The position numbers were made by a program, and so were the translations under genes. Positions 1 to 58,200 of a DNA stretch of 64,000 nucleotides are shown in pieces (the first letter of the stretch is position 1; each line of letters starts with the position of its first letter). The notes beneath the pieces are model-generated. The model saw only the letters and a program-made list of their open reading frames with translations, made no database searches and had not been told where the DNA came from. The DNA comes from Lingula anatina (lineage: Eukaryota; Animalia; Brachiopoda): NCBI GenBank assembly GCA_051362555.1, contig CM120640.1, positions 21,266,001 through 21,330,000 of the forward strand, given 5' to 3'.

Positions 1-3658
<3,658 letters not shown>

Positions 3659-4198
3659 TATGACTGGAAATTATTAGATGATTAAGATTTATGCAAATGA
3701 TCATTTTATTTTTCCACAATAACTATTCAAACATCAACAATCATCTTAATCTCAACCTCCTTTCAAAGGCTAACAATCATTCCAATGCATGAGCAAATAA
3801 TCCCTGCAACTTCTCTTCCAATTCCAAAGGCAAATATTAACCATCGTTTTTAATTTACAGGTACTGTAGAATGATCACTTTTTCATCAATATGACAATCT
3901 GATTCAAAGCTAACTGGATCCAAGACATTCAAAAAAGTATTAGACAAGTATGTACGCACCAGTAGGCTGCACCTATCCTACTAGCTCCGCAGACCAAGGC
4001 AGGGATATTTAATTTCTCTGTCAATCGGCCACAACACGGTACGTGTGCCACTGAACAACTGTGAAAGTTGGGTCCAGTCCCCTTTTGAGCCCGTTATTAA
4101 CAAGTTCAAATAATCCCGTTCGGAACAGTTACAAGATCTTTAACAATTAAATGTCCAAGGTGTGTTAAATTCATCAAAATATCATCTCACAGACTTAC

Positions 4199-4451: not shown

Positions 4452-4818
4452 GTAAGGGATTTCCACAACCCTGGGCATTTCCTACACATTTTCTACACAG
4501 TTTCGGTTCGGCACTCCTGTATTGCTACGGTGAGGCTCATGCTTTTTTTTCTCTCAAATATCCCAAGTTTCTTTAGATATTTAACGAATGATATTATTAG
4601 AAGTAAAGTTTAAATAGTAATAACTCAGTACGTTTAACTTTAAAACCAAATTTGTTTGTCTGAATGTGAATGACGCTTTGTTTACATCAATTTACATCAA
4701 TACCAATACAGCTATGGTCAGCTCATAAGGCATGTCAGCATCCATCTTTCTATCTTTTGCTGCTGTGGATACGTCTAATATAAATAGTTATTACACTGTA
4801 CTCATGTTGTTTTACAGA

Positions 4819-6009
4819 ATGAGTGTCTATACTGGAAAGCATCATCTGTCCTGGGTTTGCAAGGTTCCTCTGTCATGCCTGCAGGGGAGGATCTTCCATG
4901 TAGAACTGGTACAACAAGAAAAGTTCAAAGTCACAGAGTATTTATCACCTGCTCCTTTTAGGTGGTGTACTCAAGAGTCACTAATCACAGTAGCTGCAGA
5001 CCTTGGCGAAATTAAAAATACCTTTCTATTTCCTTTGCCACCTTTAGGTGCAAGTGATCGTTGTCTTGACAAATTGGTATGTATAGGAAGCAGAGATAAT
5101 CTTTTGGTTATTCAGTATATGACTGTAAAATGTAAACATATCCAATTTTTGTTGGTTGACACTGCAGCAGGCACTTGTCGACCGTTTCAGGACATTGTGC
5201 ATTATTTCAACAGAGACAATTGCAAGGGTGATGCTGTAGAATGTCATATCAACCCAGAGCAATCAACTGCACTTTTCAGGCTTCCCCAGGGCATTAGAAC
5301 CCCAAAGCATTGGTCCAAAATATTATTGGCTGATCTTTGGAAACGTGACATCAGGACCAGTCCGAAACCAGGCGCTTTGAATGAGGTGACACCTGCACTT
5401 GTCATTACAGATCCAGATGAAGGCTGTTTAAGGGATAGAAGAAGGCAGATGCTAGCTTTTGATCCCAGATCAAGATCAAACTTACTTTTTGTGTTAGTAG
5501 ATGAGTATGGTAATAAATTCAAACTGACTACTTACAATCTATCGGACCACAAAGTTATAAACTGCAGTACTATCAGTGTGGATATTGACAAACAGTCTCA
5601 ATGGTTAACAAGTGATCTGAATTTTAGTCCAAGTGGAGAAGTTGCTGTTGTCACCACATGGTTGTTGTGTGCTGGGCATGGAGTTGATGTTTTTGTGTAT
5701 ATTATAAATCCAGACAGCCTGGAAGTTCTTACAAAAATTCCTGTCTTCCGGGGCTTGGAACTGAAGACCATGAATAGATCACTGCCATATTCAGTCATCA
5801 TGTCAGCAAATGATCGGTCATTTTTTGTGCCAAAAACTATAAGTGTTTCTGCTAGCAAGGCTCATTTTAGGTGCATCTTGCTTCCAAATACTTTGTGCCT
5901 CAAAAGTTTGTGTCGGAAAGTGATATTGACTAATGTGCCAATAAATGCCATAAGACTACTGCCTTTGCCAGATAGCCTGATAACATATCTCATGTTCAAA
6001 TATTTCTAA
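4819..6009 (+). CDS. Uncharacterised 396-aa protein with a C-terminal SOCS box (Elongin BC/Cullin-5 adaptor-like) and a probable beta-rich substrate-binding region
   Basis: Long uninterrupted ORF. The first ATG after the acceptor at 4817 is at 4819. C-terminus 'LCLKSLCRKVILTNVPINAIRLLPLPDSLITYL' fits the BC box plus the LPLP Cul5 box. AATAAA at 6067-6072. Confidence 0.8.
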   Translation: MSVYTGKHHLSWVCKVPLSCLQGRIFHVELVQQEKFKVTEYLSPAPFRWCTQESLITVAADLGEIKNTFLFPLPPLGASDRCLDKLVCIGSRDNLLVIQYMTVKCKHIQFLLVDTAAGTCRPFQDIVHYFNRDNCKGDAVECHINPEQSTALFRLPQGIRTPKHWSKILLADLWKRDIRTSPKPGALNEVTPALVITDPDEGCLRDRRRQMLAFDPRSRSNLLFVLVDEYGNKFKLTTYNLSDHKVINCSTISVDIDKQSQWLTSDLNFSPSGEVAVVTTWLLCAGHGVDVFVYIINPDSLEVLTKIPVFRGLELKTMNRSLPYSVIMSANDRSFFVPKTISVSASKAHFRCILLPNTLCLKSLCRKVILTNVPINAIRLLPLPDSLITYLMFKYF

Positions 6010-6915: not shown

Positions 6916-6961
6916 TTCACACGTTTTGAAGATGTGTCTTTCAGGTTAAATCAGAAGTAAG

Positions 6962-9900
6962 ATGGCATTACCTAATAAGTTAGCATTTTTTGTGGTGTTG
7001 GTTGTTTTGATGGTTGCTGTTTATGTTGAAGATGTTCAGGGAAAGAAAGGACGAAAGAGGGCAGCAAATACAGGTTAGTTATCTTGAATCTGAGAAATGT
7101 ACAAACTCTGGGATATATCTAGTTACTAAAATATTGGTCACCATAAACCGAATTTCATTGATCACAAAAATACAAGTTGGCATTTTAGAAAACAATTTAA
7201 ATCGGTGTGATTGCTATGAAATTCAGCATTGTTAGGACTTGTTTCATGCTCGATATTGAAAGTGATGTAGTGCAATTACTGGTGTTTTAGTGATCTTAGC
7301 ACAATTAAAATTCATTTCATAAGACAATAGGTTATTAGAGAAAACACCTGACTAAAATGTTATTTTTTGTTATCATAAATAAGCAATAAAGAACAATTTA
7401 TCACTTTAATGAAAGTGTATTCAAATTTCAAGATGTGCAGTCCATAAGTAAACCCCAGAATACAATCAAAGAACAGAAAAATAAAAAAGTCCACCACATA
7501 AAGGGGCATAATGCAAAGAAAAATGAAATAGAAAATAAAAAGAATCAAGAAAAGGGAAGAGATAATCATCCTGGCATTAAAAAAGGTAGGTTTTTATAAT
7601 ATAGAGAATAGTCAATTCTGTTTATAGCCAACTTCTCATATTGCAAAATGTTATCCTGTTTTCCATTCCAATGTACCAAAATTTTCTAGTACATTATAAC
7701 ATTCAAGAAAAGTTTCCTTGCTTGTCTCTTTTACTTAGGTCTGTTCAACACAAAAAAGAAATAAGATATGTTGCCCAATGGCTAACTAATTTCTTTGATA
7801 TAATTATAATTTTATTTATTAATTTTTTATCTTATTCCATTTTTTCTGTCTCAACATATTGTAGTGTATTAGCCTATGTATCGTTTACGCGTCACGCCAG
7901 GTGTCGCATGACACCTGGTACCATGTGACTTGACGCGGGAATCTTGAATGTAATAAAGCAGAACTCACAACAATGGCGACAAGGATGGTCACATTTTATT
8001 ACGTTGAATGATAATTTTACGATTTTAAACAACATGGAGCCTCTATGCTCAAATGAAATTGACAATAGTGGTGAGGAAACACGGATTACACGAATGGAAA
8101 ACGAAATTAGACACTTAAACTCAAAATTTGAAGGACTATGTGAAAATGTTTATAAAATGACAGAAGGATTGCAGAAATTTCAAACAGAATTTATCTCATA
8201 TATGCGACGTGATAATCCATCCTTATTGGAAAATTCAGCTTCACCCTTTACTCATGCTCAGCAAGGACACATTGAGATAAATGATCCTCATGATGGCGAT
8301 GCTCCTCCCGGCTCTGATACTTCAACGGAGTCTTCAACTCATGGTTTAGCTGAGCGAATAAGTTCAAATGCTGATTTTGTACCAGTCCCGGGGCAGCCAG
8401 TTGTCAGTGACCCAACCGTGCCAGCGTACCGTTATGGACGTCAGAATTCTGATCCGAGAGGGCCATATCGACAATTCCGTGAGGATGTACCCACATTCAC
8501 TCCCACGCAAAGATCACAGCCAGTGGACACTCCCCTGTATACTGACGAAAACCGACAACCACCTCCAACAGGTAGGTCATTTCCCATATACAATGAGTCA
8601 CACATTACCTGCCCCCAGCCGCCCACCCGTTTTCAATCATATGATGGAAGTACTAACTTCTATTCATATTACGTAAAATTATGTTGCGTTGCTGAGAGCA
8701 AGGGATGGGGAGTCAAAGAAATCTACGAAATTATGATCAATTCACTAGAAGGTAAAGCCCTTGACGAGTTTGTAAAACTACCACCTAACGAAAGGATGCA
8801 CCTGTACAGTGTTGTAGATACCCTCATGAAATGTTTCGGAAAAACCGAAAATACATCCTTGGCGCGAACAGAACTGGCCGCTATAAAACAAAAAGAAAAC
8901 GAAAGCTATGAGGAATTTGGCTCACGTGTGAGAATTTTAGCGTTGTCTGCCTACCGTGGTACTGGCCTATTTAATCAAATGGCCACTGAATCGTTTTTAC
9001 GTGGGTGTTCAGACAAAGATTTAGTGGAAAAAGTGATGTGCATGAGACCTAGAACATTAGAAGAGGCGGTCGAAAATGCCCGTACGTGTGGCGCAAATAT
9101 GCAAATTCTGGGGCTACGCAATGAAAATTGTAGTAAACAACTGCGCAAAGTTACTTTTAAGGAACCCCAGTCTCCATGTACAGATCATATTGAGCGTCAA
9201 AATCCACCTAATGTGAGTCGCGTTCAGTTTTCACCTCGTAGCTCGAGTCCTAATCGGAGAAAACCATTTCAGTCAAATGATGCAGAGCAGAGGTTGCAAA
9301 ACATTGAATCCTCGTTGTTAGAATTGATTCAGTTATTCCGTCAGTCCGTGAACCAGACACAAAAGGGCAATGACACTCAGTTCAGTACACCCCCCAGGGG
9401 CATCACAAGGTGCTATAATTGCCATGAAATGGGTCACATAAGCACCAATTGTCCCCAGAAAAACAGTGATTCGTTAAACCGCAACAGGTCGCCTGTGCGG
9501 TCCAACAATCGACCTCAGCTGCAGTAGGACCAAATCTGATCCCACACACTGTTTATTGTAATGGCATGGCCAAAGGTGAAAGTTTAGTGGTCCCCATACA
9601 TGTCAATGGAATCAAAACTAACGCTGTTATCGACACAGCAGCGCAAGTGACCATAGTTAGTGACAAGTTGTTATCAGAAATTACTGGAGAAATTACTTAC
9701 GGCGGGTACCATGACATAAAAGGTATACCGCAGATTAACTTACGAGCAAGAGAAATAAAAGGCCTAAAATTAGCAATTGGTTCAGAAGTGTATGAATGGA
9801 CAGTACTTGCTGCTCCTATCCCAGACAATGTTTTATTGGGTTTAGATTTCTTAAAAATGTTTCAGTGTAACATCTGTCTGGAAAACAATTTCATATCGTT

Positions 9901-12900
9901 GGCCAGACCAGATCCTTCAAATAGAAGACGAAACAAAGTTCATGCCTCTATAAGAAAAGGTAGTGACAATTATTTAGTGGCGAATCGTGTCATTTTATCA
10001 AAGAAACTTGCCGTTCCACCGCATTCTGAGAAGTTTGTTCAAGTCCCCTTTGTTGCGGAAAGGAACAAAACATTTTTACTCAACGCCCCTAAATATGATC
10101 AGAAGGGTCTTTCGGTGCCTTATGGGTTGATAAGCACCGATTATACGGATGATTGCCTCAGTTGTTCAATCGCTCTAAGGAATGAGACTGATAAGTCAAT
10201 TACCTTAAAAGCAGGTCATGTGATGGGTGATTTGGAAGAGATTGAGCGTGTACTGGGATATCCTGAGAGTTTTGATAGTTCAAATGTGCACCAGTCTTTC
10301 TCGGTGTTGAAAGTTGATGTGAACTCTAACGATGTGAAGAATAATATTCCTGAACACGTGATTGATTTGTGGAAACGATCTAGTGAGGATTTGTCTGATG
10401 AGCAGTCTCTCAAATTAGGCAATCTTTTGACAAAATACGCCGATGTTTTTTCCAAATCTGAATTTGATATCGGCCATTTTACCAAAATTAAACATAGAAT
10501 TGATACAAACGAAGCAAAGCCTATTAAACAAAGACTGAGACGCACACCTCTGGGTTTTGAACAAGAGGAAAAAGCTACATTAGATAAATTGTTAGCCGCT
10601 GATATTGTGCAACCCTCTTGTTCTGAATGGTCTTCCCCTCCTGTTTTAGTGAGAAAGAAAGACGGCACTTTGAGATATTGCATAGATTTTCGTGCTTTAA
10701 ATAAAGTGACCGTCAAGGATGTGTATCCACTACCACAGATAGACGAATGCTTAGATGTTTTAGCGGGCACTCGATATTTCAGCACTCTTGATATGAACTG
10801 TGCTTATTATCAGGTTGAAGTTGAGGAAAGCTCCCGGCCTAAAACCGCTTTTATGACCAAGTACGGTTTGTTTGAGTTTAAACGACTACCGTTTGGTTTG
10901 ACTAACAGCCCTGCTACTTTCATGCGAGCAGTCAATTCCGTTCTGCATGGTTTGACGTGGAGACAAGTACTCGCTTACTTGGATGATGTTGTTGTGCTTG
11001 GGAACAATTTTGATGATTCTATAGCCAATATTGCACTGGTGTTGGATAGATTCAAAGAAAATGGATTGAAATTAAAACCATCCAAGTGTTCATTACTCAA
11101 AAGGAGTGTTCTCTATTTGGGTAAATTGGTAGATGAGAATGGCATTGCTCCAAATCCTGACAGTATAAAAGCAGTTCAACGTTGGCCACGTCCAAAATGT
11201 AAGAAAGACGTGGAAAGATTTCTTGGTCTAGTTAATTACCATAGAAGTCACATAAAATGTTTTGCTGCTATGTCTGGTGTACTGTATGATTTGACCAAAA
11301 ACAAAAGTGTTTTTAATTGGACTAATGAACACGAAGTTGCATTCAATGACTTGAAACAGGCTTTGGTCCATAGTCCCGTGCTGAGCTTTCCAGACAGTGA
11401 TGGTTTATTTATTTTAGACACGGACGCCAGTGATACTTGTATTGGAGCTGAGCTCATACAGGTGCAAAATGACGCTGAAAAGGTCATTAGTTATGGCAGT
11501 TTTGCTCTCACTCCTAGTCAACGTCGTTATTGCACGACTAAAAAGGAGCTTTTAGCAGTAGTCCGATTTACTCGGCAGTACAGGCACTATCTACTTGGTA
11601 GAAAGTTTGTAATACGGACAGATCATTGCAGTTTGACTTGGATCATGAGTTTTAAATTGCTCAATGGTGTTTTAGCAAGGTGGATGGAGGAATTGGCCCA
11701 GTATGATTTCGAAATTCAGCACCGATCGGGTAAAAACCACAGTAATGCTGATTCGTTGTCACGCATTCCTCTTCAGCACCAAGACTGTAATTACTATGAA
11801 GCTGGTTGTGATGTGACAGAGTTACCTTGTGGAGGCTGTCATCACTGTACCAGGCTTCATGAAGAGTGGGACAGATTTAACAAAGATGTCGATTACATAG
11901 GGCCCCTGTCTCTAAGAAGCGTGAAAACTGTTACACCTGTCGTAGACCCACCCAAGGAAAATACTGGGAATGTTGAATTGTTTGCAAAGTATACAGCAAG
12001 TCAACTCAGAGAAGCGCAATTAAAAGATCCTCACTTATTAAAGGTGATAGGTTGGATTGAGGAAAATGTAAGTCCTTCTCAAGAGGAGTTGCAACTATGC
12101 TCGACAGCTGTGAAATTTTTATGGACCAACTTCAATTTGCTGTCCATGAAAGATGGTGTTTTATATTACAGCAGGTTTGATAAAGGCTTTTTTAACCCTC
12201 TTTTGGTATTACCCAAAGAATTTCAACAGGAAGCCTTATCATTGTGTCATGACCCTGTTATTTCAGGTCATCAAGGGATTGCTCGGACTCTTTCTAAGTT
12301 GAGACAAAGTGTATTTTGGTATGGAATGACTACCGACTGCAAACTGTATGTCAATTCATGTGTGGCCTGTGAAAAAAATAAAAAAGCAAGCAGGAAATTC
12401 AGAGCTGAATTGCAAAATTTCCATGCCGGTGCACCTTTAGAGAGGGTTCACATAGATATTTTAGGACCACTTACTCCCAGTAAAGCAGGGAATAAGTACA
12501 TTTTAGTTGTAGTGTGTCAATTCACTAAATGGGTGGAAGCGTATCCATTACCGGATCAAACTGCAGATACAATTAGCAAAACATTGGTGAACAATTTCAT
12601 TGCTAGGTTTGGTTGTCCAACCATCATACATTCCGACATGGGTGCCAATTTTACAAGTGAATTGTTTAGTAATGTTTGCAGTTTACTGTCTATTAACAAA
12701 ACCCAAACTAGTCCGTACAGGCCGTGTTCAAATGGCGCTGTGGAGCGTCAGAATAGGACTATCATGCAGTGTATACGGTGTTATTTAGAAGGACAGGACA
12801 GTAATTGGGATGAACATTTATCTTTAATTACAAGCGCAATCAGAGCGGTCCCTAACAGACAAACAGGTCTGACCCCAAACATGTTGATGTTTGGAAGGGA

Positions 12901-15900
12901 AACTAGACAGCCCATTGATTTTACGTTTGGTTTAAAATCTATTAAAGGGGATGTTGAACCAAATAGCTATGTCATGCAATTAAAAGAAAAGCTAGAGAGC
13001 GTTCACGAGTTGGCCAGAAAATGTCTCGGCGAGAATTTAAAGACACAAAAAGCGTACTATGACGCAAATGCCAGGCAGACACAATATTGTAAGGGTGACC
13101 TAGTGTATAGATATAATAACATGTCAAAACCCGGTCGTTCAAAGAAATTACAGCCTGTATGGCTCGGTCCCTTCAAAATTATTGAGGTGCTTTCTCCAAT
13201 TTTGTATAAAATAAAAACAAAAAGAAAAGTTGTGGTGGTGCATCATGATCACTTAAAGCCCTGTAAGGGAAGGGGGCCCCTAAAACCCTCAAAAGCTAAA
13301 TGTGTGACTCCTACTAATGTGGGTGATGACCAACCACAAGGTGATAGAACTGTCAAAGATGCTGTTGTTACGAGAAGTGGCAGAACAGTTATACCTCCAA
13401 TACGTTATTGTTGAGAGGAAGACTCAGACTAATGAGGTTATTAACAGATGTGACAGCGATATCCACTACAATACGTTATGCCAAGGACAATTTACTGAGA
13501 TAATGGGACATTTTCTGTGAACTCTATTGACTTTGAACCGAACATTGACTATGTTTTACATACATATATTGGCTACATTATACTGAGCCTGTATTTGCAT
13601 TCAATATTCTATTCATACAAGTGACACAATTATATGTCGTTCACTTTATCAAGGCATTTGTAAAAGTTGTTTGTATTCTGAAGCTGTTTGGATGCACAGT
13701 ACAGTCTTGTGAGTAAAGTGCATGTGTCATGTTGATAATGCAGATTTAGCATAATTAGTAAAGTTCATATGTGCCGTTTATGCAGTAATGTATGCACATT
13801 TATATATAAAAAATATGGGACTTGAAAGTATGCACTGTTTAACACAACATGTTACCTTAGTTATAAGGAAATAATGTATTTATATGTGCCGTTAATATGT
13901 AATGTATATGCACAATTATTATTTACTATGCACAAAAATAGATCTCATTATCATAAACTGTGCTGATGTAAGGCATACAATACATATAACATTGTCATTT
14001 AAAGCAAGGGTTGACTAAGATGCTGTTGATAAAGTGTAATCCGTATGTATGTTAAAGTTATGTCAACAATTGTAATTAATTCACACTTATCTTAATTATC
14101 AGTGGTTTATATATAAGCATGTTTTGAAAATATGATGGGGAGGAATGTAGTGTATTAGCCTATGTATCGTTTACGCGTCACGCCAGGTGTCGCATGACAC
14201 CTGGTACCATGTGACTTGACGCGGGAATCTTGAATGTAATAAAGCAGAACTCACAACAATATAAATAATAATCTCTGGGTATGAATAATTAAAAATTTAA
14301 CAGTCTTTGAATTACTGGATTTTATTTGTACTATTCCAGAAACAGAGGAAAACCCACTGTGACAATGTTAACAAACATACATATACAAAGTAGATATGAA
14401 TCAAAATTTAATGTTAAAAATAGCAGCAATGTTTAGAAGAAATACCTATGCTTTGCAACTATACCATATCTGCCTAATGCCTTTACAAACAATGGTCTCA
14501 ATTTCTTGTCTGCATTGCAGAACAGACACAAAAACCAATACATGACATAGTTGTGAAAAATGAAGAGCAAAAGAAAAATAGAGGAAAAAGGTAAATGCTA
14601 TTCTCTACAAATCGGTAATAATAGATGTCAGACATGTATATAGTATATTTATATACTCTATTGATAACCATTATCAAACAGTTTAGGCATTATTTTGTTT
14701 ATTGATGTCATATGTGATCATGGTTAAAAGCATTTTTGTTAATTAGAATGAAGTAAGTGGTTATTAATGCAGTAAACCTTACTAATGCTATATAAAACAT
14801 TTAAGCTGCATTGGTTGCAAAAACAAAACACTTTAACTCAAATTTATGCATGTTGGCCTATAGTGGTGACAGTTTGCTAAACAGAAAGTTTAAAAATTGA
14901 TCCAGAAAATTTGTCAAGCTACAGTCTTTTAAATAAATGAAGAAGGTTAAATTCTAAAGATGTTCAAACCTATTTTAAATTACTGAACTTATTTTTTGTT
15001 GATATAAAGCCCCATGCAAGAAGAACTTGGAAACTAAGAATTCAACCCATTGTCATAATAACCTGATAGAGCTGATAGACACTGATTTTCCCCATTGGAT
15101 GATATTTTAATTGCTCAAATTTATGATTAAATGAAGTTCCTGATGCATTTCTTATTGAAGTGTTGAAGAAAAAGGCCTAAAGAAGAAAATGAAAGAAAAA
15201 CCAGGAGAGAATCATGTCAAAAGGCAGATAACAGATGCCAAGATACATGATACAAATGGTTTGTAAAAAAAGATGTGAAAATTGGTCTGTTTTTTTTTTT
15301 TTTTCAAAAAAGATATTCCTGTTTCTGTATTTTATTGACAAAGTGATGGTTTGATGAATAAGAATTTATTTTTATTATTAGTTCTTTAAATGAGTTATCA
15401 TATTTTAACTTTTTTGGATTATTAAATGAAAACTTGTGAAAATTTTATAGTCGTTCAGAAGCAGAAAAAATAATTTTTCATATTAATGAATGAGTATTCA
15501 ATTTTTAAGGTGCACAGCCCATAAGTAAACCTCAGAACACAATCAAAGAACAGAAAGATCAAAAAGCCCACCACATTAAGGGTCAAGATGCAAAGAAAAA
15601 TGAGAACAAAAAAAAGAAGGAAAAAAGAAGAGCTAAACATCCTGGTGGGTTTTTGTAATATGATAATTAAGGGTTAACTGAATTTAAAACCAATTTCTCA
15701 TATTACAAACAGGCTAATCTGTTTTCAGTTCTGATGTAGCAGAATTCCTTAGAATATGTATAATATTCAAAGTAAGTTTCCTTGCTCATTGCTTTTTAAT
15801 TACTGTTCAACACTAGCAAAAGAACATTGATGTTTCATACTTTCATTATTATTATATTATTATCTATTTTCATTTATTCTATTTTGCTTTATTGATGTTT

Positions 15901-17216
15901 GATCATAATTCTAAGTGAGAACCTCTGGATTTTAATTACTGAAAATTGAGCAGTTTTTCAATCATTTGATTGATAATTTGTTAATACCATTTCAGAAGCA
16001 GGAGAAAATCCTACTGTAATGGCAACAAACAAAACCAAAGCTGCGAATGAAAAGAAAAAAGGAAATATTAAGGAAGAGAGAGTAACTGCTAAGATACCAG
16101 GCATGAAAAGTAAAGATCATGTTTAATAATATTAAATTTTTAAAAAGAATGTTAATGTTAATTTAAAATCAAATAGCAATGTTAAAAAAATCCAATATGC
16201 TTTGCGACTATACCTTATTTACCTGTTGCCTTCATAAACAATGGTCTGAATCTGAATTTCTTTGTTTTGCAGAACAAACGGCACAAAAACCAATACCTAG
16301 TGTAGATGTAAATGAAAAGAAAAATAAAACAAATAGGTAAATGCTATTCTCTACATATCAGTAGTAACTAGAAAAGTGCTCAGAGAGAAAAGTCCTCTGC
16401 AAAAGTTGCTCAGTTTTCATTATTACGAATTATTTATTAAGAAGTTAATCAATTGATTAATTAGTTTTCATAAATATTTAAACCACTTTGGTTGCAAAAA
16501 CATAATGCTTTAAGGTGCTTCAGTACATTAAGATACACAACTGAATTACCTCTGCAGGTGAAGTTTGATTTCTTTGATGATGACTTGTTATGTAATAAAA
16601 TAACAAAAAAAGAAAGTGGTTAATTTCATCATACTAATATTTAGATAAATATTTGACATAAAAGTAATAGGATAGGAGCTATTTTGACCAATTTAGGGCA
16701 TTTTAACATATAGTACCACCTAGATTATGCATGGTGGCCCAAGATCGAGAGAGATCAATGGCCAAGCAGATGGAAATTAAACCGAAAAATATGGCTGGAT
16801 ACAATATTTTTAATGAATAAAAAAGGTTAAGTTTAAAAAATTACAATCAAATCCCATTTTAGTGCAATCATTCTTAGCTATTTGTAAGTCCTTTAGCCAT
16901 AAGTGTTTGAAAATTTTTAATTCAACTCGTTGTCATGATAACCTTACAAAAAGAGCTTAGGGCTGTGATTTCCCCATGGAATGATACTTTGATTGCTCAA
17001 ATTTAGTGTGAAAATTAAATCAGCTAATTGATGCATTCTTTATTGAAAGCACTGAAGGGAAAGGCCTATGGGAGAAAATGAAGGATATACCAGTGTATTT
17101 CAACAGGTGGATAACAGATATCAAAACACCAAGTACAAGTGGTAAGTTAAAAATAAGTGTGGAAATTGCAAATTTACAGTTCGTTTAAATCGAGTGATAT
17201 CCCTTAATATGGTCTA

Positions 17217-17255
<39 letters not shown>

Positions 17256-20021
17256 ACTCAAAAGTGACATTTCTGTTTAAGTGTTTTATCAGAAAATTGG
17301 GAATAAATTAAGTGATAGATTTAATGATAAATAAATGTTTTCCAATTTTTATGTACAGACACAGATGTGTCTGTACATATTGCCATCACCTGCGTCTGTC
17401 GTCGCCGATGCCGATGGCGATGGCGATGCCAATGCCGGCGCCGTGCACTTTCCTTGTAAACACGATAAGTGGAGGGCAGTTTTACTTTTTGGCTTTATAT
17501 TTACAGAGCTGATGAATATTCATAAAACGCAGGTCAAGTTCGAAAATCAGCATGATCGGGCCATTATTGTAGAAGTTATGCTGTTTTTTCACTTTTCAGC
17601 ATATTTTTCACATTTCCTCAGATTCAATTCTTAGGCATGTTAACAGTCTCATTATTAAACTAATAAGATACGTAAAAGTTTTTGTTTGACATTTCCTGCA
17701 TCTTTACAACATTGTTAGTTGATTTTGTAAAAATGATGGTAAACTTGTTATCGTGTATTGTGTAATAAAGTTTCAAAAATGGAAATAAACTCATATCATT
17801 GCAGTTTGTCAGATTCAATCATTCACTCTGTTCAGAATCTCAGAATGGAAGAAATTGGACATTTAACACTGCTCTATTGATATTTTTCCCATCTCATCAA
17901 TTTTCTTAGTTGATCATATAAAAATGGCAGTAAACTGTTAATTTTGTTTTATGTTAAAAATTGTTAAAAATGGAAAAAAAAATTTCAGAACAGTGCTGTC
18001 TTGTTTACATTTTGGCATTTTCAAGTTGTGACTTTGAAGTTCCATGGGCCTGAAGACCTTTGCTAGTCACATTTTCTGAATATCCATGATACTAATATTT
18101 TATTATTAAAAATTGATGGTCATTATGCTGTTAAACATTATGTAATATTGCCTCAAAATTTGAAAAAAACCTATTTTGGGCACTGCTCCCATGATGACCA
18201 TTTAAGAAAAACCATGTCACTTACTGTTCTCAAACTTACAGGAAAGAAACATGGGACTAAAATATAGCTTCAGTAGGCAATGCAATCTGCCAGTTAAACA
18301 GTTTTTTGTGAAATTTTAATTTTTCACATATTGCCATTTTCAAGGTGTGACTTTGAAGTTCCACAGGCTTGAAGACCCATGCTTGTCATATTTTCTGAAA
18401 ATCCATGATACGTATATTTTATTATTAAAAATTGATTGTCATTATGCTGGTAACCAAAATGTAATATTGCATCAGAATAGAAGAAAACACAATTTTGGGT
18501 GCTGCTGCCATGATGACCATTATGGGAAAACCATGTTACTTATGATTGCCAAACTTTCAAAAAAGAAATACAGGACTAAAATGCAGCCTGAGTTGGAAAA
18601 GCAGTCTAATTGACTTTTTTTTCTGGAAGTTTTACATTTTCAAAGGGTGAACTTGAACTCCCATGGGCCTGAAGCCTTATGTTTGTTACACATTTTACTT
18701 ACATTGGTATTACCTGTTGAGCATAATTAGAATTTGATGTTGAATTTGCAGTTTAACATAATGTACTTTTGCATCAGAATTGACAGTAGCCTATTTTGTT
18801 ATTTCCTGCTTTTTGTCTGTACATTTGACAGCTTTGCTGCCTTGTTTTAAATACATCTATATAGTTTTTCAAGTGGTTCATGATATTTAAACTATTTAGA
18901 AATATGAACTGGACACTATAAAAATTGCAACTTAAACATCTTACATTTTGTTAAATGTAACAGATGGAGAAGATATCCAGGATCAGATTCCTCTTTTACA
19001 AGATAAGGAAATGCTGCACAAAAACTTACAATCATTCCTTGAGACAATTGCCCCTCCACAGGAAACAGTTTCAAAGCACAGGAACATAGTAGATCATTTC
19101 TTACAAGAGATGGAGAGACGTTTACAAGGAGAACAAAAGAGTTTAAAATTTGGAAACCTTGGTCTTGTTGGCAGCGTAAGTGAAGGGGTTCAAGTCATTG
19201 CAGCAGACGACTTTGATGTTAGTGTAGCCATAGATATTGGTCATCTGTCAGCCATGGCATCACAGACTCCAGGGTACGATTTCATCGAATCTCCTAATTG
19301 TACCAGGACAAAACTTTGTGGACATGACAATTTAAAAGTTGTCCCTTTTAAAGTTATCTCCCGTTTGCAAAGTATCATTCAAGAAAATTTAAATTACTTC
19401 CAAAAATTTAGCCCAAATCTTAAATATAACCTTGGTTTTAAAGGACCTACTGTCAAAGTAGAAATTCTGGAAGGAGAAGAGTTTCTTGTACGCATTGAAT
19501 TTGTCCCATTGGTAACTAGTTCCAATGGCAATAGATATGTAGCAAAAAGTTACAAAGATGAAGACATTGAGACAGTTACAGTTTGGCGCAGGTCATTTGC
19601 GCGGGAGGAAAGAGAACTTTTATCCAAATTCAATAGAAAGTCCACATGCCATTTAGATGTCTTGCGAATTATGAAAGCAATCATCAAAAGAGACCCAGAA
19701 CTGAACACAACTAAAAAACATCATCGCCTGACGTCATATCACATGAAAACAGCTTTGTTTACTTTGATAAGTGAAACACAGGGCACTGACTGGTCTCCAA
19801 ACCAACTTTCATCTTATTTTGTTAAATTCCTCCAAAGGCTGAGAGATTTCCTGAATCAGGGTTCTATGAAAAGTCATTTTTTGGATGGTGGTAATTTATT
19901 TAATAGCATTTCCAAATCAGATATGCCACGTATTATTAATAGGATTGACACATTTCTGAAGGAGCCAAAACATCTGTACAGAATACTATCAGCTGAAATG
20001 AAAGCTCATGAAGAACTGTAG
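6962..20021 (+). CDS. cGAS-like receptor (cGLR / Mab-21 family NTase), ~628 aa: signal peptide or anchor, Lys-rich repeat stalk, Mab-21 domain. Exons 6962-7073, 7433-7585, 14521-14590, 15161-15258, 15510-15644, 15996-16100 (or 16109), 16273-16336, 17050-17141, 18964-20021
   Basis: The nine exons join in compatible phase with no stop (1887 nt). ATG 6962 has a good Kozak context (AAGATGG) and an in-frame upstream TAA. The last exon has 'GSVSEGVQVIAADDFDV', 'VRIEFVP', 'WRRSFAREERELL', 'LRIMKAI', 'LTSYHMKTALF' and 'SHFLDGGNLF', the cGAS/Mab-21 signatures. Confidence 0.75.
7860..7972 (+). repeat. 5' LTR (113 bp)
   Basis: TGTAGTGTATT...CTCACAACA, identical to 14146-14258. AATAAA at 7952-7957. Confidence 0.97.
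7974..7988 (+). promoter_or_regulatory. Primer-binding site, tRNA-Ser(GCU)-type
   Basis: TGGCGACAAGGATGG, 1 nt after the LTR. It matches 14/15 of the complement of the animal tRNA-Ser(GCU) 3' end as recalled (TGGCGACGAGGATGG). Confidence 0.75.
8034..9527 (+). CDS. gag: Gag
   Basis: Open ORF from the first ATG after the PBS. It has a coiled-coil N-terminus, a capsid-like region (FQSYDGST...IKQKENESYEEFGSRVRILA) and a CCHC knuckle CYNCHEMGHISTNC. Confidence 0.93.
   Translation: MEPLCSNEIDNSGEETRITRMENEIRHLNSKFEGLCENVYKMTEGLQKFQTEFISYMRRDNPSLLENSASPFTHAQQGHIEINDPHDGDAPPGSDTSTESSTHGLAERISSNADFVPVPGQPVVSDPTVPAYRYGRQNSDPRGPYRQFREDVPTFTPTQRSQPVDTPLYTDENRQPPPTGRSFPIYNESHITCPQPPTRFQSYDGSTNFYSYYVKLCCVAESKGWGVKEIYEIMINSLEGKALDEFVKLPPNERMHLYSVVDTLMKCFGKTENTSLARTELAAIKQKENESYEEFGSRVRILALSAYRGTGLFNQMATESFLRGCSDKDLVEKVMCMRPRTLEEAVENARTCGANMQILGLRNENCSKQLRKVTFKEPQSPCTDHIERQNPPNVSRVQFSPRSSSPNRRKPFQSNDAEQRLQNIESSLLELIQLFRQSVNQTQKGNDTQFSTPPRGITRCYNCHEMGHISTNCPQKNSDSLNRNRSPVRSNNRPQLQ
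9566..13414 (+). CDS. pol: Pol polyprotein (protease, reverse transcriptase, RNase H, integrase), probably expressed as Gag-Pol by -1 frameshift at ~9473-9479
   Basis: Protease 'VIDTAAQVT', RT 'LPFGL...YLDDV', RNase H 'LDTDAS...KKELLAV', integrase HHCC (CHDPVISGH...CVAC), 'HIDILGP...HSDMG...VERQN', GPF motif and terminal 'TRSGR'. No stops. Confidence 0.97.
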   Translation: MAKGESLVVPIHVNGIKTNAVIDTAAQVTIVSDKLLSEITGEITYGGYHDIKGIPQINLRAREIKGLKLAIGSEVYEWTVLAAPIPDNVLLGLDFLKMFQCNICLENNFISLARPDPSNRRRNKVHASIRKGSDNYLVANRVILSKKLAVPPHSEKFVQVPFVAERNKTFLLNAPKYDQKGLSVPYGLISTDYTDDCLSCSIALRNETDKSITLKAGHVMGDLEEIERVLGYPESFDSSNVHQSFSVLKVDVNSNDVKNNIPEHVIDLWKRSSEDLSDEQSLKLGNLLTKYADVFSKSEFDIGHFTKIKHRIDTNEAKPIKQRLRRTPLGFEQEEKATLDKLLAADIVQPSCSEWSSPPVLVRKKDGTLRYCIDFRALNKVTVKDVYPLPQIDECLDVLAGTRYFSTLDMNCAYYQVEVEESSRPKTAFMTKYGLFEFKRLPFGLTNSPATFMRAVNSVLHGLTWRQVLAYLDDVVVLGNNFDDSIANIALVLDRFKENGLKLKPSKCSLLKRSVLYLGKLVDENGIAPNPDSIKAVQRWPRPKCKKDVERFLGLVNYHRSHIKCFAAMSGVLYDLTKNKSVFNWTNEHEVAFNDLKQALVHSPVLSFPDSDGLFILDTDASDTCIGAELIQVQNDAEKVISYGSFALTPSQRRYCTTKKELLAVVRFTRQYRHYLLGRKFVIRTDHCSLTWIMSFKLLNGVLARWMEELAQYDFEIQHRSGKNHSNADSLSRIPLQHQDCNYYEAGCDVTELPCGGCHHCTRLHEEWDRFNKDVDYIGPLSLRSVKTVTPVVDPPKENTGNVELFAKYTASQLREAQLKDPHLLKVIGWIEENVSPSQEELQLCSTAVKFLWTNFNLLSMKDGVLYYSRFDKGFFNPLLVLPKEFQQEALSLCHDPVISGHQGIARTLSKLRQSVFWYGMTTDCKLYVNSCVACEKNKKASRKFRAELQNFHAGAPLERVHIDILGPLTPSKAGNKYILVVVCQFTKWVEAYPLPDQTADTISKTLVNNFIARFGCPTIIHSDMGANFTSELFSNVCSLLSINKTQTSPYRPCSNGAVERQNRTIMQCIRCYLEGQDSNWDEHLSLITSAIRAVPNRQTGLTPNMLMFGRETRQPIDFTFGLKSIKGDVEPNSYVMQLKEKLESVHELARKCLGENLKTQKAYYDANARQTQYCKGDLVYRYNNMSKPGRSKKLQPVWLGPFKIIEVLSPILYKIKTKRKVVVVHHDHLKPCKGRGPLKPSKAKCVTPTNVGDDQPQGDRTVKDAVVTRSGRTVIPPIRYC
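14134..14145 (+). promoter_or_regulatory. Polypurine tract
   Basis: GATGGGGAGGAA abuts the 3' LTR. Confidence 0.85.
14146..14258 (+). repeat. 3' LTR (113 bp)
   Basis: Identical to the 5' LTR. Confidence 0.97.
14340..14389 (+). pseudogene. Degenerate (frameshifted) copy of the cGLR cassette exon at 15996
   Basis: The TTCCAG acceptor is intact. AAACAGAGGAAAACCCACTGTG aligns to AAGCAGGAGAAAATCCTACTGTA with a 1-nt deletion, giving TGA at 14360-14362. Confidence 0.6.
17218..17252. repeat. (GT)n microsatellite
   Basis: Directly visible. Confidence 0.95.
17350..17640 (+). mobile_element. Non-autonomous interspersed repeat (Helentron/HINE-like) fragment
   Basis: GC-rich microsatellite-like core (CGTCTGTCGTCGCCGATGCCGATGGCG) followed by TTCCTTGTAAACACGATAA, a layout common in mollusc repeats. 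Family assignment is inference. Confidence 0.5.
18010..18800. repeat. Diverged tandem repeat, ~300-320-bp unit, ~2.5 copies
   Basis: TTTCAAG.TGTGACTTTGAAGTTCCA..GGC.TGAAG recurs at ~18018, ~18338 and ~18638. Confidence 0.85.
18964..20021 (+). CDS. Terminal exon encoding the cGAS/Mab-21 nucleotidyltransferase domain
   Basis: ORF 18948-20021. CAG acceptor at 18961-18963. GS motif, DFD and a third acidic residue, followed by the Mab-21 C-terminal helices. AATAAA signals at ~20097-20130. Confidence 0.92.
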
Positions 20022-20174
20022 AAATGCATGACTAGCATCTTTAAACTGAAACAATAGTATGTAGTTGTAGAATTTAATTAATCTGAAATTTAATTGAATA
20101 AAATTTGGAGTTAAATGGAATAAAAATAAACTTCAAGGAGCTTCATACAAGATCATATTTCAGAAGTTTTTTAA

Positions 20175-20487
20175 AAGGGATAATAACTCTTAGTTTTGGC
20201 CAAAAAATGAATTTTCCTGGAGTAAACAATTTCCCCATACTAACCAATGGTAAATGAATACATTTTTACATTCAATGTCAGTCCCTGTTTTTTTTCTAAA
20301 ATGTTTTTTTTTCTAAAAAGAGTATAGCCATCAATAGAGGTCATGTGGTCTAAAGACAAGCTCAGATATCAGAATAATAGCTATAACTGCCATTTTTGTG
20401 GTACAACACAATATATTATATTTCTATGAGTTGTTCACAATGTTTTTATTGTGAAATAAAGATCTCATGCGAAGAGTCATTATCCCT
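20175..20487. mobile_element. MITE, Kolobok-like (TTAA flanks)
   Basis: AGGGATAATAACTCTT ... AAGAGTCATTATCCCT inverted termini, with TTAA at 20171-20174 and 20488-20491. Confidence 0.6.
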
Positions 20488-21329
20488 TTAACTGTTTATA
20501 TTTAATTGTGCCACCAGGTAGAGTGCCATCTACCAGAGGTATTCTCTAGAATTTATAAAATTGGACGAAATACCCCCTGTCAAATTTGAGATGACCAGGT
20601 GGAATGCATTCCTAGCCAGACAAATTTGTATCTCTCAGCAGAGGCAATTTCATTCTTGTTGGGTTACCCAAACCCTTGTATGTGTTTCATAATGCATTAA
20701 ATAGCTGTAAAGATTAGGTAGACCCACTTCAAGTGCCCAGCTGTGCGATTACACCCAACCCAACAAACATCTCTTTTCCTGAGCCATTTTTTTAGGGGCT
20801 GGGAAGTTACATGAGAGAATACAGTTATGGAATGTTTTTTTTTTAACAGTTTCAAATAAAAGAAAGCAAAACAAGTAAATTTCTAAAACTAATGTTTTAA
20901 TATTTTCAATTCTTTACAAAAAAAAAATCTATAATGTACAGTGATCACTTCATTACTCCAAAATCAGTCAATTGCTTTGTATTTGTATTGTCTACAATTG
21001 AAATTTATTCAGACTTGATTTGTTAAAGAATAGGTACATGTCATAAAAGACATGAAATGTCATTTTGGAGTTTGTAATCCATTTCCTTTAAGAAAATGTA
21101 ACAAATAGATGGAGATAAGAGTGCCATCAACTTCTTGTATAAATAGAAATACTTTGGTTCCTCTATCAAAAGCTACAAACAGATTGGATTGTATGCTTTT
21201 CTGCTGATATTCAAATTCTTTAATGTCTTTCCTTGCTTTAAACACTCCCATTATTGTTATCACTTGGGTCAAAGTACTTTACATATCTTATCCATATTGT
21301 AATCAAACCAATACACTGTGCGAAGTCAA

Positions 21330-43111
<21,782 letters not shown>

Positions 43112-55200: not shown

Positions 55201-58200
55201 AATGTACTCGAGTCAAACAACATAACTATGGCATTGTCATAATTCAAATGACATGTTAGGTGGCTAAGATAAAGCACAACGGTAAACAATAAGTATCTCG
55301 CCAGAGCTCTGTCAAAAGGTGCATCACTTCACACCACCAATTTTCCAAATGTACCAAAATTGCAAATCATCAATATGAGTTGTCATACTTGAACAGTCTG
55401 CATGGCAACCATAAAGCATAAAAGTCTAGAACTGGTATCTTTACAGTGAGTGAATAAAAACATCAATTCACACCAGCAAAAATAAAATGAGTTCCACAAC
55501 AGTCAGACAGTCAGCTATGTGAAAGGCTTGGCTGTGTATATAGGCATAGACAATAATCAAACTAATTTTACTGACAGTGCAAATGCACCTGAATAATAGA
55601 AAAACAAGTTACATGATAGTCAAATAATACAAATAGCATATTAATTGGATTAATACTAGTATTTCCTGAATATAATACTAAGCCATTCAGATTAAGCTTG
55701 TGAAACCAGACAAGCATATTGGATTGCAAGCAGCACCAAATTCACAATTAACTCAAATCACAATGTTTTAGCCTTTTAGCCTTGAGAATTGTCTATTAAA
55801 GAATTCCCCATGCAGAGTTGAGAGCTAGCAAGCATCAATTCACTTTCAAGACACTGAACTCATTATCTGCCTTATGCCTTTATTCACCGAGCCCGTTATG
55901 CAAGTCAGAAAGAACTTCAACTCTGGGGAAATCACTGAAACCAGTTGCATATTTCATGACAGTGTTCAATGGAATTTTTCTCACTACTGCTAGAGTAGAA
56001 CATGATATATAACATAAACAATATGCCTTTGTTCAACCTTTGAATGTGTCTTTTCTAGTTTTTTCAGCAAATCCACAAAAGTACAAATATTTGAATTGAA
56101 ATTCGGCTTAGCGCCAGCCATAATACGACAAATGGATTCCATTGTCTCTGCAATTAAGTCATTTCAGGAAATGTTTGGTCTATTTTCAGTCTCAATTGGT
56201 TGTGAAGAAGTACAACTTAAAGTGAACACTATATATAGCAGAATTAACCGCATACCACAACAATAACTATCTTTATATAGATAGAACGGAAGATTTACAC
56301 AAACAATATACTGTATATGTAATAGCTAAAATTGCATTTACCTTTTGCCCTACAATACTTTGGTGTCCATCAAATTGCCTACCAGTACACCAAGACAGTG
56401 GAATTATTGGAAAGCCAAGAGGGACAATTAATTTTTCGAAGAAACTTACTGCATAGTTGTTACATATTTGAATCAAATGTAATTCTCTGATCAACTGGTT
56501 TGTCCCTAGGGTGCTATTTACCTTGAAAATTTCAAATCTCTATGGATCTTTCCATTGGCCAAATCTCTACACATTAATATTTTATATAGCTGATCCCAGT
56601 TTGAGTAAACTGCCAATGCTGGCAATCCATTGTATAGAACTAACTTTTTTTATGGGTCTGTGAAAGAATCCATTTTCAGTTGCTTTACATAGGGAACTAA
56701 TGAATTGCATATCTGTCTGGAAGCCTGATGAGATAACATTATGCACACAAAGATTGCATTCCAAAGTAGAGTGGGCAAGACTGGAAGACCACAGGTTCAA
56801 CATGTTAATGCACTTTCAATGAAAACCTATACTCCCAACTCAGAGAAGAATTTCATTAGCTGTTATGTTATAAGAATAAAGTAATTTTTCTTCACTTAAC
56901 AGCTATTATTGACAGCTAATATTACATGTCTTTCTTTAGATAGTAGCTGGTGGGAGTGAGAGCAAGTATATATGCTGGATAAGAGCTATTCACCTGGAAA
57001 GCCCCATTCCCTGATGAAGATGCTCTGAGAGACATTAAAATATTGGAAGTAATATTAGCTTGTCAATATTAGCTGTTGAGTGAACAAAAATAGCTTAATT
57101 CTTCTCTATTCTCTAACTGAATGTAACTGATAAGTCTATTATAAGCAATATTGTAGCACCAAGCCAGGCAAAGCGGAAGACCACCGCTATCAAATTTATT
57201 TTGATGACAGAATGGTCAACAAAAGACAAATATCTGGGACTTAAACTGAACTAACAGTGTCTCTCTTTTGTTGTTTCACAGGTGAGGTTAGAGCAATTTT
57301 CATCAATGGAATGCTATGCTTAAGATGTATAATTATCAAAACACTTACTTCACTCGGAATTCCTGCAGCTTCACCTGATGAATCAGCCCACCATACCATC
57401 AAGTAAGTGAAAAAAGCAATCCAAAGCATGCTCCCAATAAAACTACATGGATACCACATTTTCTTCTCCTGCAAAACAAAAATCCAGAATAAAATTGGAG
57501 TCCATAAAATATTTAAAATAGATAGAAATTTCCACACAGTTTGTATTAATTGTATTAATTGTATTATCTTGACAGTGGCCCAATGTGATGGACCAACACT
57601 GGCCCATTCATTATTGTTAAAGGGCCAACACTGAAATAACCTTTAAAGCTGAAGGAGCATCATACTAAGAGGCCAAAGCTGCTCCTTCCTTCATCACTGT
57701 TGGGCCAACACTTTCCCACCATTCAATGCTGAATTATCAAAACTGTCCTATCTTTCACATCTAGAGGGCCAACTATGGCCCAGCCTTCTAAGCTAAAACT
57801 GGAGGGCCAAAAATTGGCCAAGCCCTAGATCACAGACTATAACCTTAATTATGTAGTGCCAATGTGCATCCCTTATATTTCTTAATACTGATGAATTACC
57901 ACACAAGTTTGATTACTGACTGCTCTTATTGTTAAGAAAAAGAACTTTAATTAGCTGGCAAATTTATAGTGGGTCAGCTCATACTTACAGGTCTTCTCAC
58001 ATCTGGCAGTGTGATCCATAGTGGAAACACTATGGGAGCCAGCAAAATATATGTTAGTCTTTTCCGTGGGGTTTTTGGCCAACTGATATCCAACGGTTCT
58101 TCCTCTTCTTCCAGGGGGTCTTCATGCTAAAAAAAGCATTAATATATTGATGATCTTTATGGAAGAAGGCCTTAGGCTGCATATAATGTTGAATAGATAT

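Follow-up and report, generated by a model that had tools for sequence, protein, structure and literature searches.

The cGAS-like receptors (cGLRs) that have been studied act in the cytosol or in the nucleus. Some other Mab-21 proteins are bound to membranes: the anchors of MiD49 and MiD51 (MIEF2 and MIEF1) leave the domain facing the cytosol, MiD51 not being known as catalytic, and ITPRIP and ITPRIPL1-2 enter the secretory pathway by a leader, with a membrane segment that keeps the domain on the cytosolic side. Here, we analyzed a gene of the brachiopod Lingula anatina on the forward strand of a 64,000-nucleotide stretch of contig CM120640.1 (positions 21,266,001 to 21,330,000; hereafter the window, to whose numbering all coordinates refer). 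Its coding sequence, between 6962 and 20021, specifies a predicted signal peptide, a long basic stalk, a Mab-21 nucleotidyltransferase domain of the cGLR type, and a C-terminal tail of the KDEL type, the motif for retrieval to the endoplasmic reticulum (ER). Because a leader and an ER tail are found together in two phyla, with no second membrane segment, we predict that the protein is a soluble nucleotidyltransferase of the ER lumen.

The gene had been called hidden in a first-pass annotation made from the sequence alone, but both RefSeq and Li et al. 2023 (bioRxiv 10.1101/2023.02.22.529553), in their table of cGLRs, list it. As far as the excerpts of that study go, XP_013403411 is among 3,020 cGLRs and has a putative active site; row 1643 of Table S1 (PMC9980059) is the RefSeq allele, its trimmed sequence stopping before the tail, and the protein is not among the 140 that were screened (PMC9980059). 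The gene was thus already catalogued as a cGLR, and what the literature covered here overlooks is its two ends, which predict residence in the ER lumen; a chiton protein has the same plan. The terms "signal peptide" and "secreted" are absent from the excerpts of the main text of Li et al. (bioRxiv 10.1101/2023.02.22.529553), and the occurrences of HDEL (6) and KDEL (31) examined in Table S1 are all internal, this being no full census, with long cells of the table incomplete. In the excerpted parts of the cGLR review PMC10855445 and of PMC10732462, lumen, secreted, KDEL, and signal peptide are absent, as are signal peptide and endoplasmic in those of PMC12928593, and a luminal Mab-21 protein is not reported in those of PMC2794190. 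Our searches of the openly available literature on cGLRs and Mab-21 proteins gave no description of a luminal cGLR; this coverage does not extend to journals behind subscription, among them the one with the final version of Li et al. Trimming to the core domain removes leader and tail, and an ER-lumen class would have been overlooked because family surveys trimmed these proteins in this way, losing both ends.

A single gene of nine exons

The first-pass annotation had proposed that eight small upstream exons splice in phase onto the exon encoding the Mab-21 domain. The joined model bears this out, as all exons have AG/GT ends, the phase is kept throughout, and 631 codons are read without a stop. 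The length of about 628 residues and the nine junctions given at the time have to be corrected: exon 6 ends at the GT donor 16109, which yields 631 residues, and nine exons have eight junctions. A GC donor at 16100, which gives 628 residues, was rejected, as it matches the RefSeq protein XP_013403411 (L. anatina, 632 residues) in 611 of 633 columns, compared to 615 of 633 with the donor at 16109. With the RefSeq protein as query, tblastn finds all nine exons in the window, at 83-100% identity. Comparing the large exon with 1.84 billion representative sequences gave 414 matches at E 0.001 or better, the best of which, P0001 (632 residues, 97% identical across the domain), corresponds to RefSeq XP_013403411-414 of L. 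anatina. Because substitutions and two indels separate it from the window model, the sequence comparison indicates that the RefSeq protein is another allele, or the product of a close species, and differs from the window copy. RefSeq models rest on RNA alignments. The locus is confirmed as one gene with nine exons. Word-index protein searches with the domain exon gave nothing at 193-616 or 633-2000 residues, the 632-residue relative falling between these ranges; a scan of metagenome contigs gave 593 pattern matches, none confirmed, and no paralogue was found within the 64-kb window.

All exons are on the + strand. The first coding exon (6945..7073) contains a short part of the untranslated region, the ATG at 6962 (coding part 6962-7073), the leader, and the first basic cluster, and it ends in a phase-1 donor. 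Upstream of the ATG, the frame is closed by a TAA at 6947; 37 of 37 residues are identical to the RefSeq protein, and an acceptor is inferred at 6943-6944. Exons encoding signal peptides often end in a phase-1 intron, as this one does. The stalk is encoded by exons 2 (7433..7585, module A), 3 (14521..14590, module C, phase 1 to 2), 4 (15161..15258, module D, phase 2 to 1), 5 (15510..15644, module A', a copy of exon 2), 6 (15996..16109, module B', with RefSeq agreeing on the donor), 7 (16273..16336, module C'), and 8 (17050..17141, module D'), the last of which encodes an amphipathic helix just before the domain. Exon 9 (18964..20021) encodes the whole Mab-21 nucleotidyltransferase and helical-bundle domain and the stop. 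The gene looks scattered because a Gypsy-type retrotransposon fills intron 2 (see last section).

Four RNA runs, including X1 (stranded), X4, X7, and X9, were mapped on the window. Reads cover exons 2, 4, 5-8, and 9, and the exon-bearing bins of X1 contain + strand RNA, while the coverage of exon 1 is confounded by a neighbouring repeat. Depth in X1 and X7 was 7-14 at 7480 (exon 2) and 12-14 at 15207 (exon 4), and depths of 8-15 at 16034 (exon 6), 11-17 at 16300 (exon 7), and 7-11 at 17058 (exon 8) were recorded. At the listed positions, X7 is even over stalk and domain (11-19 over exons 2, 4, 6, 7, 8, and 9) and X1 shows 7-14 over the stalk against 1-10 over the domain, a pattern as expected of one transcript. 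X4, on the other hand, has a depth of 3-4 on exon 9 and zero at the listed stalk positions, and no junction-spanning read is among the 15 joints listed of 185. All 15 fall inside repeats, and for this reason the exon junctions rest on phase, RefSeq, and read depth. The X4 depths and the missing junction reads would fit a Mab-21 exon expressed alone, with upstream exons that are part of a different transcript or an artefact of prediction. We consider this very improbable, since at least four RefSeq accessions contain the same exons joined together, the depth of X7 is even, and the chiton protein described below has the same order of parts. Moreover, Met 19011, which had been put forward as a possible independent start of the Mab-21 exon, was rejected as such, being Lys (AAG) in 11 of 11 X7 reads and 9 of 9 X9 reads.

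In total, 808 letter differences separate the reads from the window. Among the 40 examined, 30 lie in coding positions (11 silent, 19 not), with zero stops and zero changes at catalytic residues. In the first half of exon 9 (18998-19355), the X7 and X9 reads differ from the window at many fixed sites, with 7-9 differences per read near the start of the exon, while X1 agrees there; the X7 and X9 reads may derive from a divergent (deep) allele, a paralogue, or a cryptic species.

Leader, C-terminal tail, and a chiton relative

Sequence descriptors predict a signal peptide of 27 residues (6962..7042, + strand). The residues of exon 1 read as given in the first-pass annotation, with one Lys, 16 uncharged residues (mean hydropathy 3.16), an acidic c-region, and a V-Q-G site. 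At the other end, the protein closes with HEEL and the stop (20007..20021, + strand), a KDEL-type ER-retrieval motif that was absent from that account of the protein. The tail is REEL in the RefSeq allele and KDEL in the chiton, and all three fit the PROSITE ER motif [KRHQSA]-[DENQ]-E-L. The last eight residues of the window protein and of the RefSeq allele differ by a two-residue indel and one substitution, with the ER motif kept in both. The chance of such a motif is about 0.0005 per protein, and it is found in 4 of the 150 best matches (one being the RefSeq allele) compared to 0.07 expected; two further tails, HTEL and RIEL, occur among the matches to the domain. According to the excerpts of PMC2140024, which give the PROSITE motif, a human HEEL protein is located in the ER with or without its tail, and in those of PMC8233153, REEL retains human B3GLCT in the ER and its removal is used for secretion.

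The nearest single-domain match, P0004, ends in KDEL and shares the catalytic triad D-D-E of the window protein. A search with P0004 (3 matches among 4802 candidates) identified XP_064608202-4 of the chiton Liolophura sinensis, 511 residues long and 74% identical to P0004. This chiton protein comprises an uncharged leader of 16 residues, a stalk with a net charge of +21 and an isoelectric point (pI) of 10.3, a Mab-21 domain with D-D-E, and a KDEL tail. The hydrophobic leader, whose presence in relatives had been proposed as a check, is therefore present in the closest one. Because its first Met aligns with residue 117 of the chiton protein, P0004 is probably cut short at the N-terminus. Although the identity of the Lingula protein to the chiton protein and P0004 is 27-31%, the three form a group in a 123-row tree (27 short rows dropped; Shimodaira-Hasegawa-like approximate likelihood ratio test, SH-aLRT, 93), in a 46-row mixture-model tree (support 96, quick search only), and in a careful 26-row tree with tails trimmed (support 98/96). 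The shared rare D-D-E triad and the architecture are independent of the trees.

No membrane segment was detected after the leader in the window protein or in the chiton protein by hydropathy and a crude insertion scale; the best 19-residue hydropathy after residue 40 is 1.14, with an unfavourable crude insertion score. The helix of exon 8 was rejected as a membrane segment, being amphipathic with a mean hydrophobicity of about 0. Candidate N-glycosylation sites of the RefSeq protein are N201, N245, N248, N390, and N526. The top three Atlas feature matches include a cluster named ITPRIP, but the membrane segment that ITPRIP and ITPRIPL1-2 have between leader and Mab-21 domain was not found in the window protein. 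While the first-pass annotation had left secreted, luminal, and organelle-anchored options side by side, the HEEL/REEL/KDEL tail picks the luminal, retained one and speaks against the other two. Leader and tail in two phyla are thus best read as those of a soluble ER-lumen protein, which we regard as quite likely; under this prediction, the protein is not freely secreted, nor does an anchor hold its domain in the cytosol.

An anchored form would have an uncleaved N-out segment in the ER or the mitochondrial outer membrane, as in MiD49/51, with stalk and enzyme in the cytosol as a tethered cGLR. Such a topology would suit STING signalling, and the leader core is hydrophobic enough to insert on the crude scale. 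In addition, both species have a basic cluster after the core, the following 15 residues having a net charge of +3 and +4, and by itself this would point to an anchor whose C-terminus lies in the cytosol. However, acidic residues come directly after the core in both species, and true MiD-like matches have Gly/Ala-rich anchors and no ER tail and form a separate clade. Finally, a KDEL tail works only in the lumen and has no use in the cytosol, yet it is conserved. On balance, the anchored form appears quite improbable.

Secretion was the other option, that is, an extracellular cGLR whose stalk binds released DNA or RNA and whose signal is made outside the cell, the tail delaying its exit or ER calcium loss releasing it. 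This would agree with a leader that is followed by no membrane segment, with the hemichordate cGLR3-like proteins P0070/P0187, whose leader has a V-R-G site and which lack an ER tail, and with the exit of KDEL clients from the ER upon calcium depletion (excerpts of PMC8276033). The tail is nevertheless kept in two alleles, and the chiton has KDEL in its canonical form; this points to retention at steady state and makes secretion unlikely.

Mab-21 domain, basic stalk, and proposed chemistry

The domain matches the Pfam profiles PF03281 (Mab-21, 33.1 bits) and PF20266 (Mab-21_C, 63.2 bits), both above the cut-off of 24.1. Its AlphaFold2 model, built with 102 sequences, has a predicted local distance difference test score (pLDDT) of 91.3, and Foldseek places it about equally close to MiD51 (template-modelling score, TM, 0.78) and cGAS (TM 0.77-0.78). 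By sequence, the domain matches cGAS best among PDB entries (E 7e-12, 18-19% identity). We located the G-S loop at 19170-19175, the first two catalytic aspartates, D362 and D364, at 19209-19217, and the third acid, Glu458, at 19497..19499 (all + strand, by motif and alignment). This last position is Asp in 89 of the 101 other aligned rows, and the resulting D-D-E triad is found in 2 of 102 rows, compared to 77 of 102 for the usual E-D-D. The pocket residues G349, S350, K474, R488, S490, K517, S537, Y538, H539, and K541 are those of the family majority. The motif order (LVGS, 11 residues, DFDV, 91 residues, IEF) gives a G-S loop followed by the [DE]h[DE]h and h[DE]h acids, in keeping with the cGLR criteria of Li et al. 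Taken literally, their pattern h[QT]GS with a spacer of 50-90 is departed from in two ways, V replacing Q/T (as in 12 of 101 rows) and the spacer being 91; the spacer of the active Nematostella enzyme is 106, and Li et al. themselves list the RefSeq allele. With profiles above cut-off, a fold model, and intact catalytic residues, the cGLR-type domain of the first-pass annotation is upheld.

Compared to the cGLRs of Li et al. 2023 (for example, Nematostella cGAS A7SFB5), the window protein shares the Mab-21 and Mab-21_C domains, the G-S loop, the three acids, the pocket residues, and the fold, and it differs in its leader and ER tail, in having D-D-E and not E-D-D, and in a near-neutral core whose charge is moved to the stalk. 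With vertebrate cGAS, it has in common the fold, the place of cGAS as best PDB sequence match, and a long, basic, disordered N-terminal region; cGAS, on the other hand, has neither leader nor ER tail, and the zinc thumb is missing in the window protein, where a nine-residue gap lies opposite the Cys-rich insertion of cGAS. MiD49/MiD51 resemble the window protein in being the top Foldseek match and in having an N-terminal hydrophobic segment before the domain. In contrast, the window protein has an ER tail, keeps the three catalytic acids, and scores 14.8-16.8 bits on the Pfam MID51-like profile, below its cut-off of 27, which places it outside MiD49/51. An invertebrate MiD51 orthologue was also considered and rejected, since other matches score far higher on this profile.

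Residues 28-250 form the stalk, with 25% Lys, a net charge of +35, a pI of 10.2, and neither aromatic residues nor Cys. It arose as a tandem duplication of a four-exon block together with its introns. Between the copies, indels are multiples of three in 6 of 7 cases in live exons against 9 of 39 in the flanking introns (Fisher p 0.003), and because exon indels keep multiples of three far more than intron indels, the comparison indicates that the reading frame of the stalk is under selection. A degenerate copy of exon 6 (module B; 14340..14389, + strand) is out of frame from its first acceptor, and the RefSeq model skips it; use of a weaker AG at 14346-14347 would preserve the frame and could make 14340-14389 an in-frame cassette exon. 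A single-sequence fold of the full protein (pLDDT 38.6) gives only a hint that residues 31-250 are unstructured. An Atlas search with the stalk gave no usable match, and its alignment with the chiton stalk (score 105 against 59 +/- 9, 0 of 300 shuffles) is weak and inflated by lysine runs.

Built on the gene structure, leader, stalk charge, fold model, catalytic residues, and tail described above, the mechanism that we propose is that of a soluble ER-lumen enzyme that likely makes a cyclic dinucleotide or a related product when its stalk likely binds a polyanion, a proposal that we regard as an even prospect. The leader would, with high likelihood, be cleaved as the chain enters the ER, and KDEL receptors would retrieve it. 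Both the D-D-E triad and the nucleotide pocket, which is of the cGAS type, are probably functional, and the enzyme would carry out metal-dependent nucleotidyl transfer. Much more tentatively, the stalk would supply the charge that the near-neutral core (alone, net charge +1 and pI 7.8) lacks, and it may, by analogy with cGAS, gather nucleic acid or another polyanion within the secretory pathway and so switch on cGLR chemistry. In the excerpted sources, the basic cGAS N-terminus adds a DNA-binding surface (PMC12116816) and adenosine triphosphate (ATP) is present in the ER lumen (PMC3907277). Equally tentative is the step that would follow synthesis. As STING binds its ligand on the cytosolic side, the product would have to leave the lumen, or the enzyme to be released under ER stress, to reach it.

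Several points weigh against this proposal. Besides the side on which STING binds its ligand, the lumen does not usually carry free nucleic acid, and its supply of guanosine triphosphate is unclear. Foldseek ranks MiD51 first, marginally above cGAS, and MiD51 is the best PDB sequence match of the chiton protein. Within the domain, LVGS stands in the place of h[QT]GS and a Gln replaces a Lys that 73 of 101 rows retain. The tree tool warned that two long branches, those of Lingula and the chiton, come together, the clade consists of two named species and one further record (P0004), and in the chiton leader the hydrophobic core is not directly followed by a clean (-3,-1) site. The pI of the core, 7.8, is also below the 8.5 that Li et al., in the excerpts, link with nucleic-acid sensors.

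Some of these points lead to the main rival, a different chemistry in the same ER-lumen location, which we consider possible, if doubtful: nucleotide transfer onto a protein or glycan of the lumen, comparable to the AMPylation of BiP by FICD, or a sensor or scaffold that binds ATP/ADP, as MiD51, with the stalk binding acidic luminal proteins. The evidence for the location would be shared, the rank of MiD51 by fold would fit, luminal AMPylation by FICD is a precedent (excerpts of PMC4739761), and no route from a luminal product to STING would be required. The changes from E-D-D to D-D-E and from T to V before GS, and the loss of the conserved Lys in both orthologues, suggest altered chemistry as well. 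Opposed to this, the base-stacking and phosphate-binding residues of the cGAS type are all kept, MID51-like scores (14.8-24.7 bits) are below the cut-off of 27, and the duplicated, polymorphic stalk, together with several independent ER-tailed cGLRs, resembles receptor evolution. As proposed for the window protein, FICD/HYPE, fukutin, and FKRP are nucleotide-using transferases of the secretory-pathway lumen, and fukutin and FKRP share its nucleotidyltransferase fold, but FICD has the Fic fold and none of the three is a Mab-21 protein. Fukutin and FKRP form a separate group and are membrane-anchored.

Other Mab-21 proteins and the genomic neighbourhood

ER tails were also found in P0024 (HDEL), P0141 (HTEL), P0072 (RDEL), and P0183 (RIEL), on separate branches of the Mab-21 tree. 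P0183 has a leader and an E-D-D triad along with its tail, while the records of P0024, P0141, and P0072 begin inside the domain, with no leader region. One origin for all seven ER-tailed rows was rejected (approximately unbiased test, p 2e-8, for a group named after the first tree was seen). Because three to five unrelated Mab-21 matches carry such tails, targeting by an ER tail probably arose several times among the matches. We speculate, and hold it to be rather unlikely than otherwise, that animals possess a hidden class of cGLRs in the ER lumen that would sense polyanions of the secretory pathway and either make cyclic dinucleotides for export, as a cell-to-cell alarm, or be released active under ER stress, having arisen at least three or four times, with one branch as old as the brachiopod-mollusc split. 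A catalytically complete cGLR kept in the ER lumen would imply either that immune sensing and synthesis of a second messenger extend to a new compartment or that the lumen hosts a new kind of nucleotidyl transfer.

Three cGLR3-like proteins of Ptychodera flava (P0070, P0186, and P0187) have a signal-like leader, with the V-R-G site in P0070/P0187, and no ER tail, and are candidates for secreted cGLRs. In a further set of invertebrate Mab-21 proteins (P0007, P0011, P0035, P0054, P0068, P0097, and P0117), MiD-like N-terminal anchors occur together with an E-D-D triad, and P0007, P0011, P0054, and P0117 pass the Pfam MID51-like cut-off. These proteins may be catalytically complete relatives of MiD49/51. 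The contrast that the first-pass annotation drew with anchored Mab-21 proteins is overly sharp, as several anchored invertebrate MiD51-like matches keep E-D-D.

The retrotransposon in intron 2 is a Gypsy-type element with long terminal repeats (LTRs) at 7860..14258 (+ strand), with identical 113-base-pair TG..CA LTRs and an ATAT target duplication, features that mark it as very young. Its open frames, gag (7929-9527) and pol (9470-13414), are on the strand of the host gene, with an RNA depth under 1.4. Dispersed repeats at 17345-18950 and 20050-20500 draw read depths of 300-1250, and three diverged repeat copies lie about 300-320 base pairs apart at 18001-18783.

Directly upstream of the cGLR gene and on the same strand lies a SOCS-box gene (4729-6009, +), near or upstream of which an untranslated first exon of the cGLR gene may lie, and a PRMT3-type zinc-finger exon (3221-3670, -) points away. 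On the other side, a BRR2/SNRNP200 helicase gene with Sec63 and BRR2_plug matches (21330-40670, -) converges on the 3' end of the cGLR gene. Farther along the window, an exon at 57241-57642 (-) resembles, by a weak match, those of sodium/calcium exchangers.

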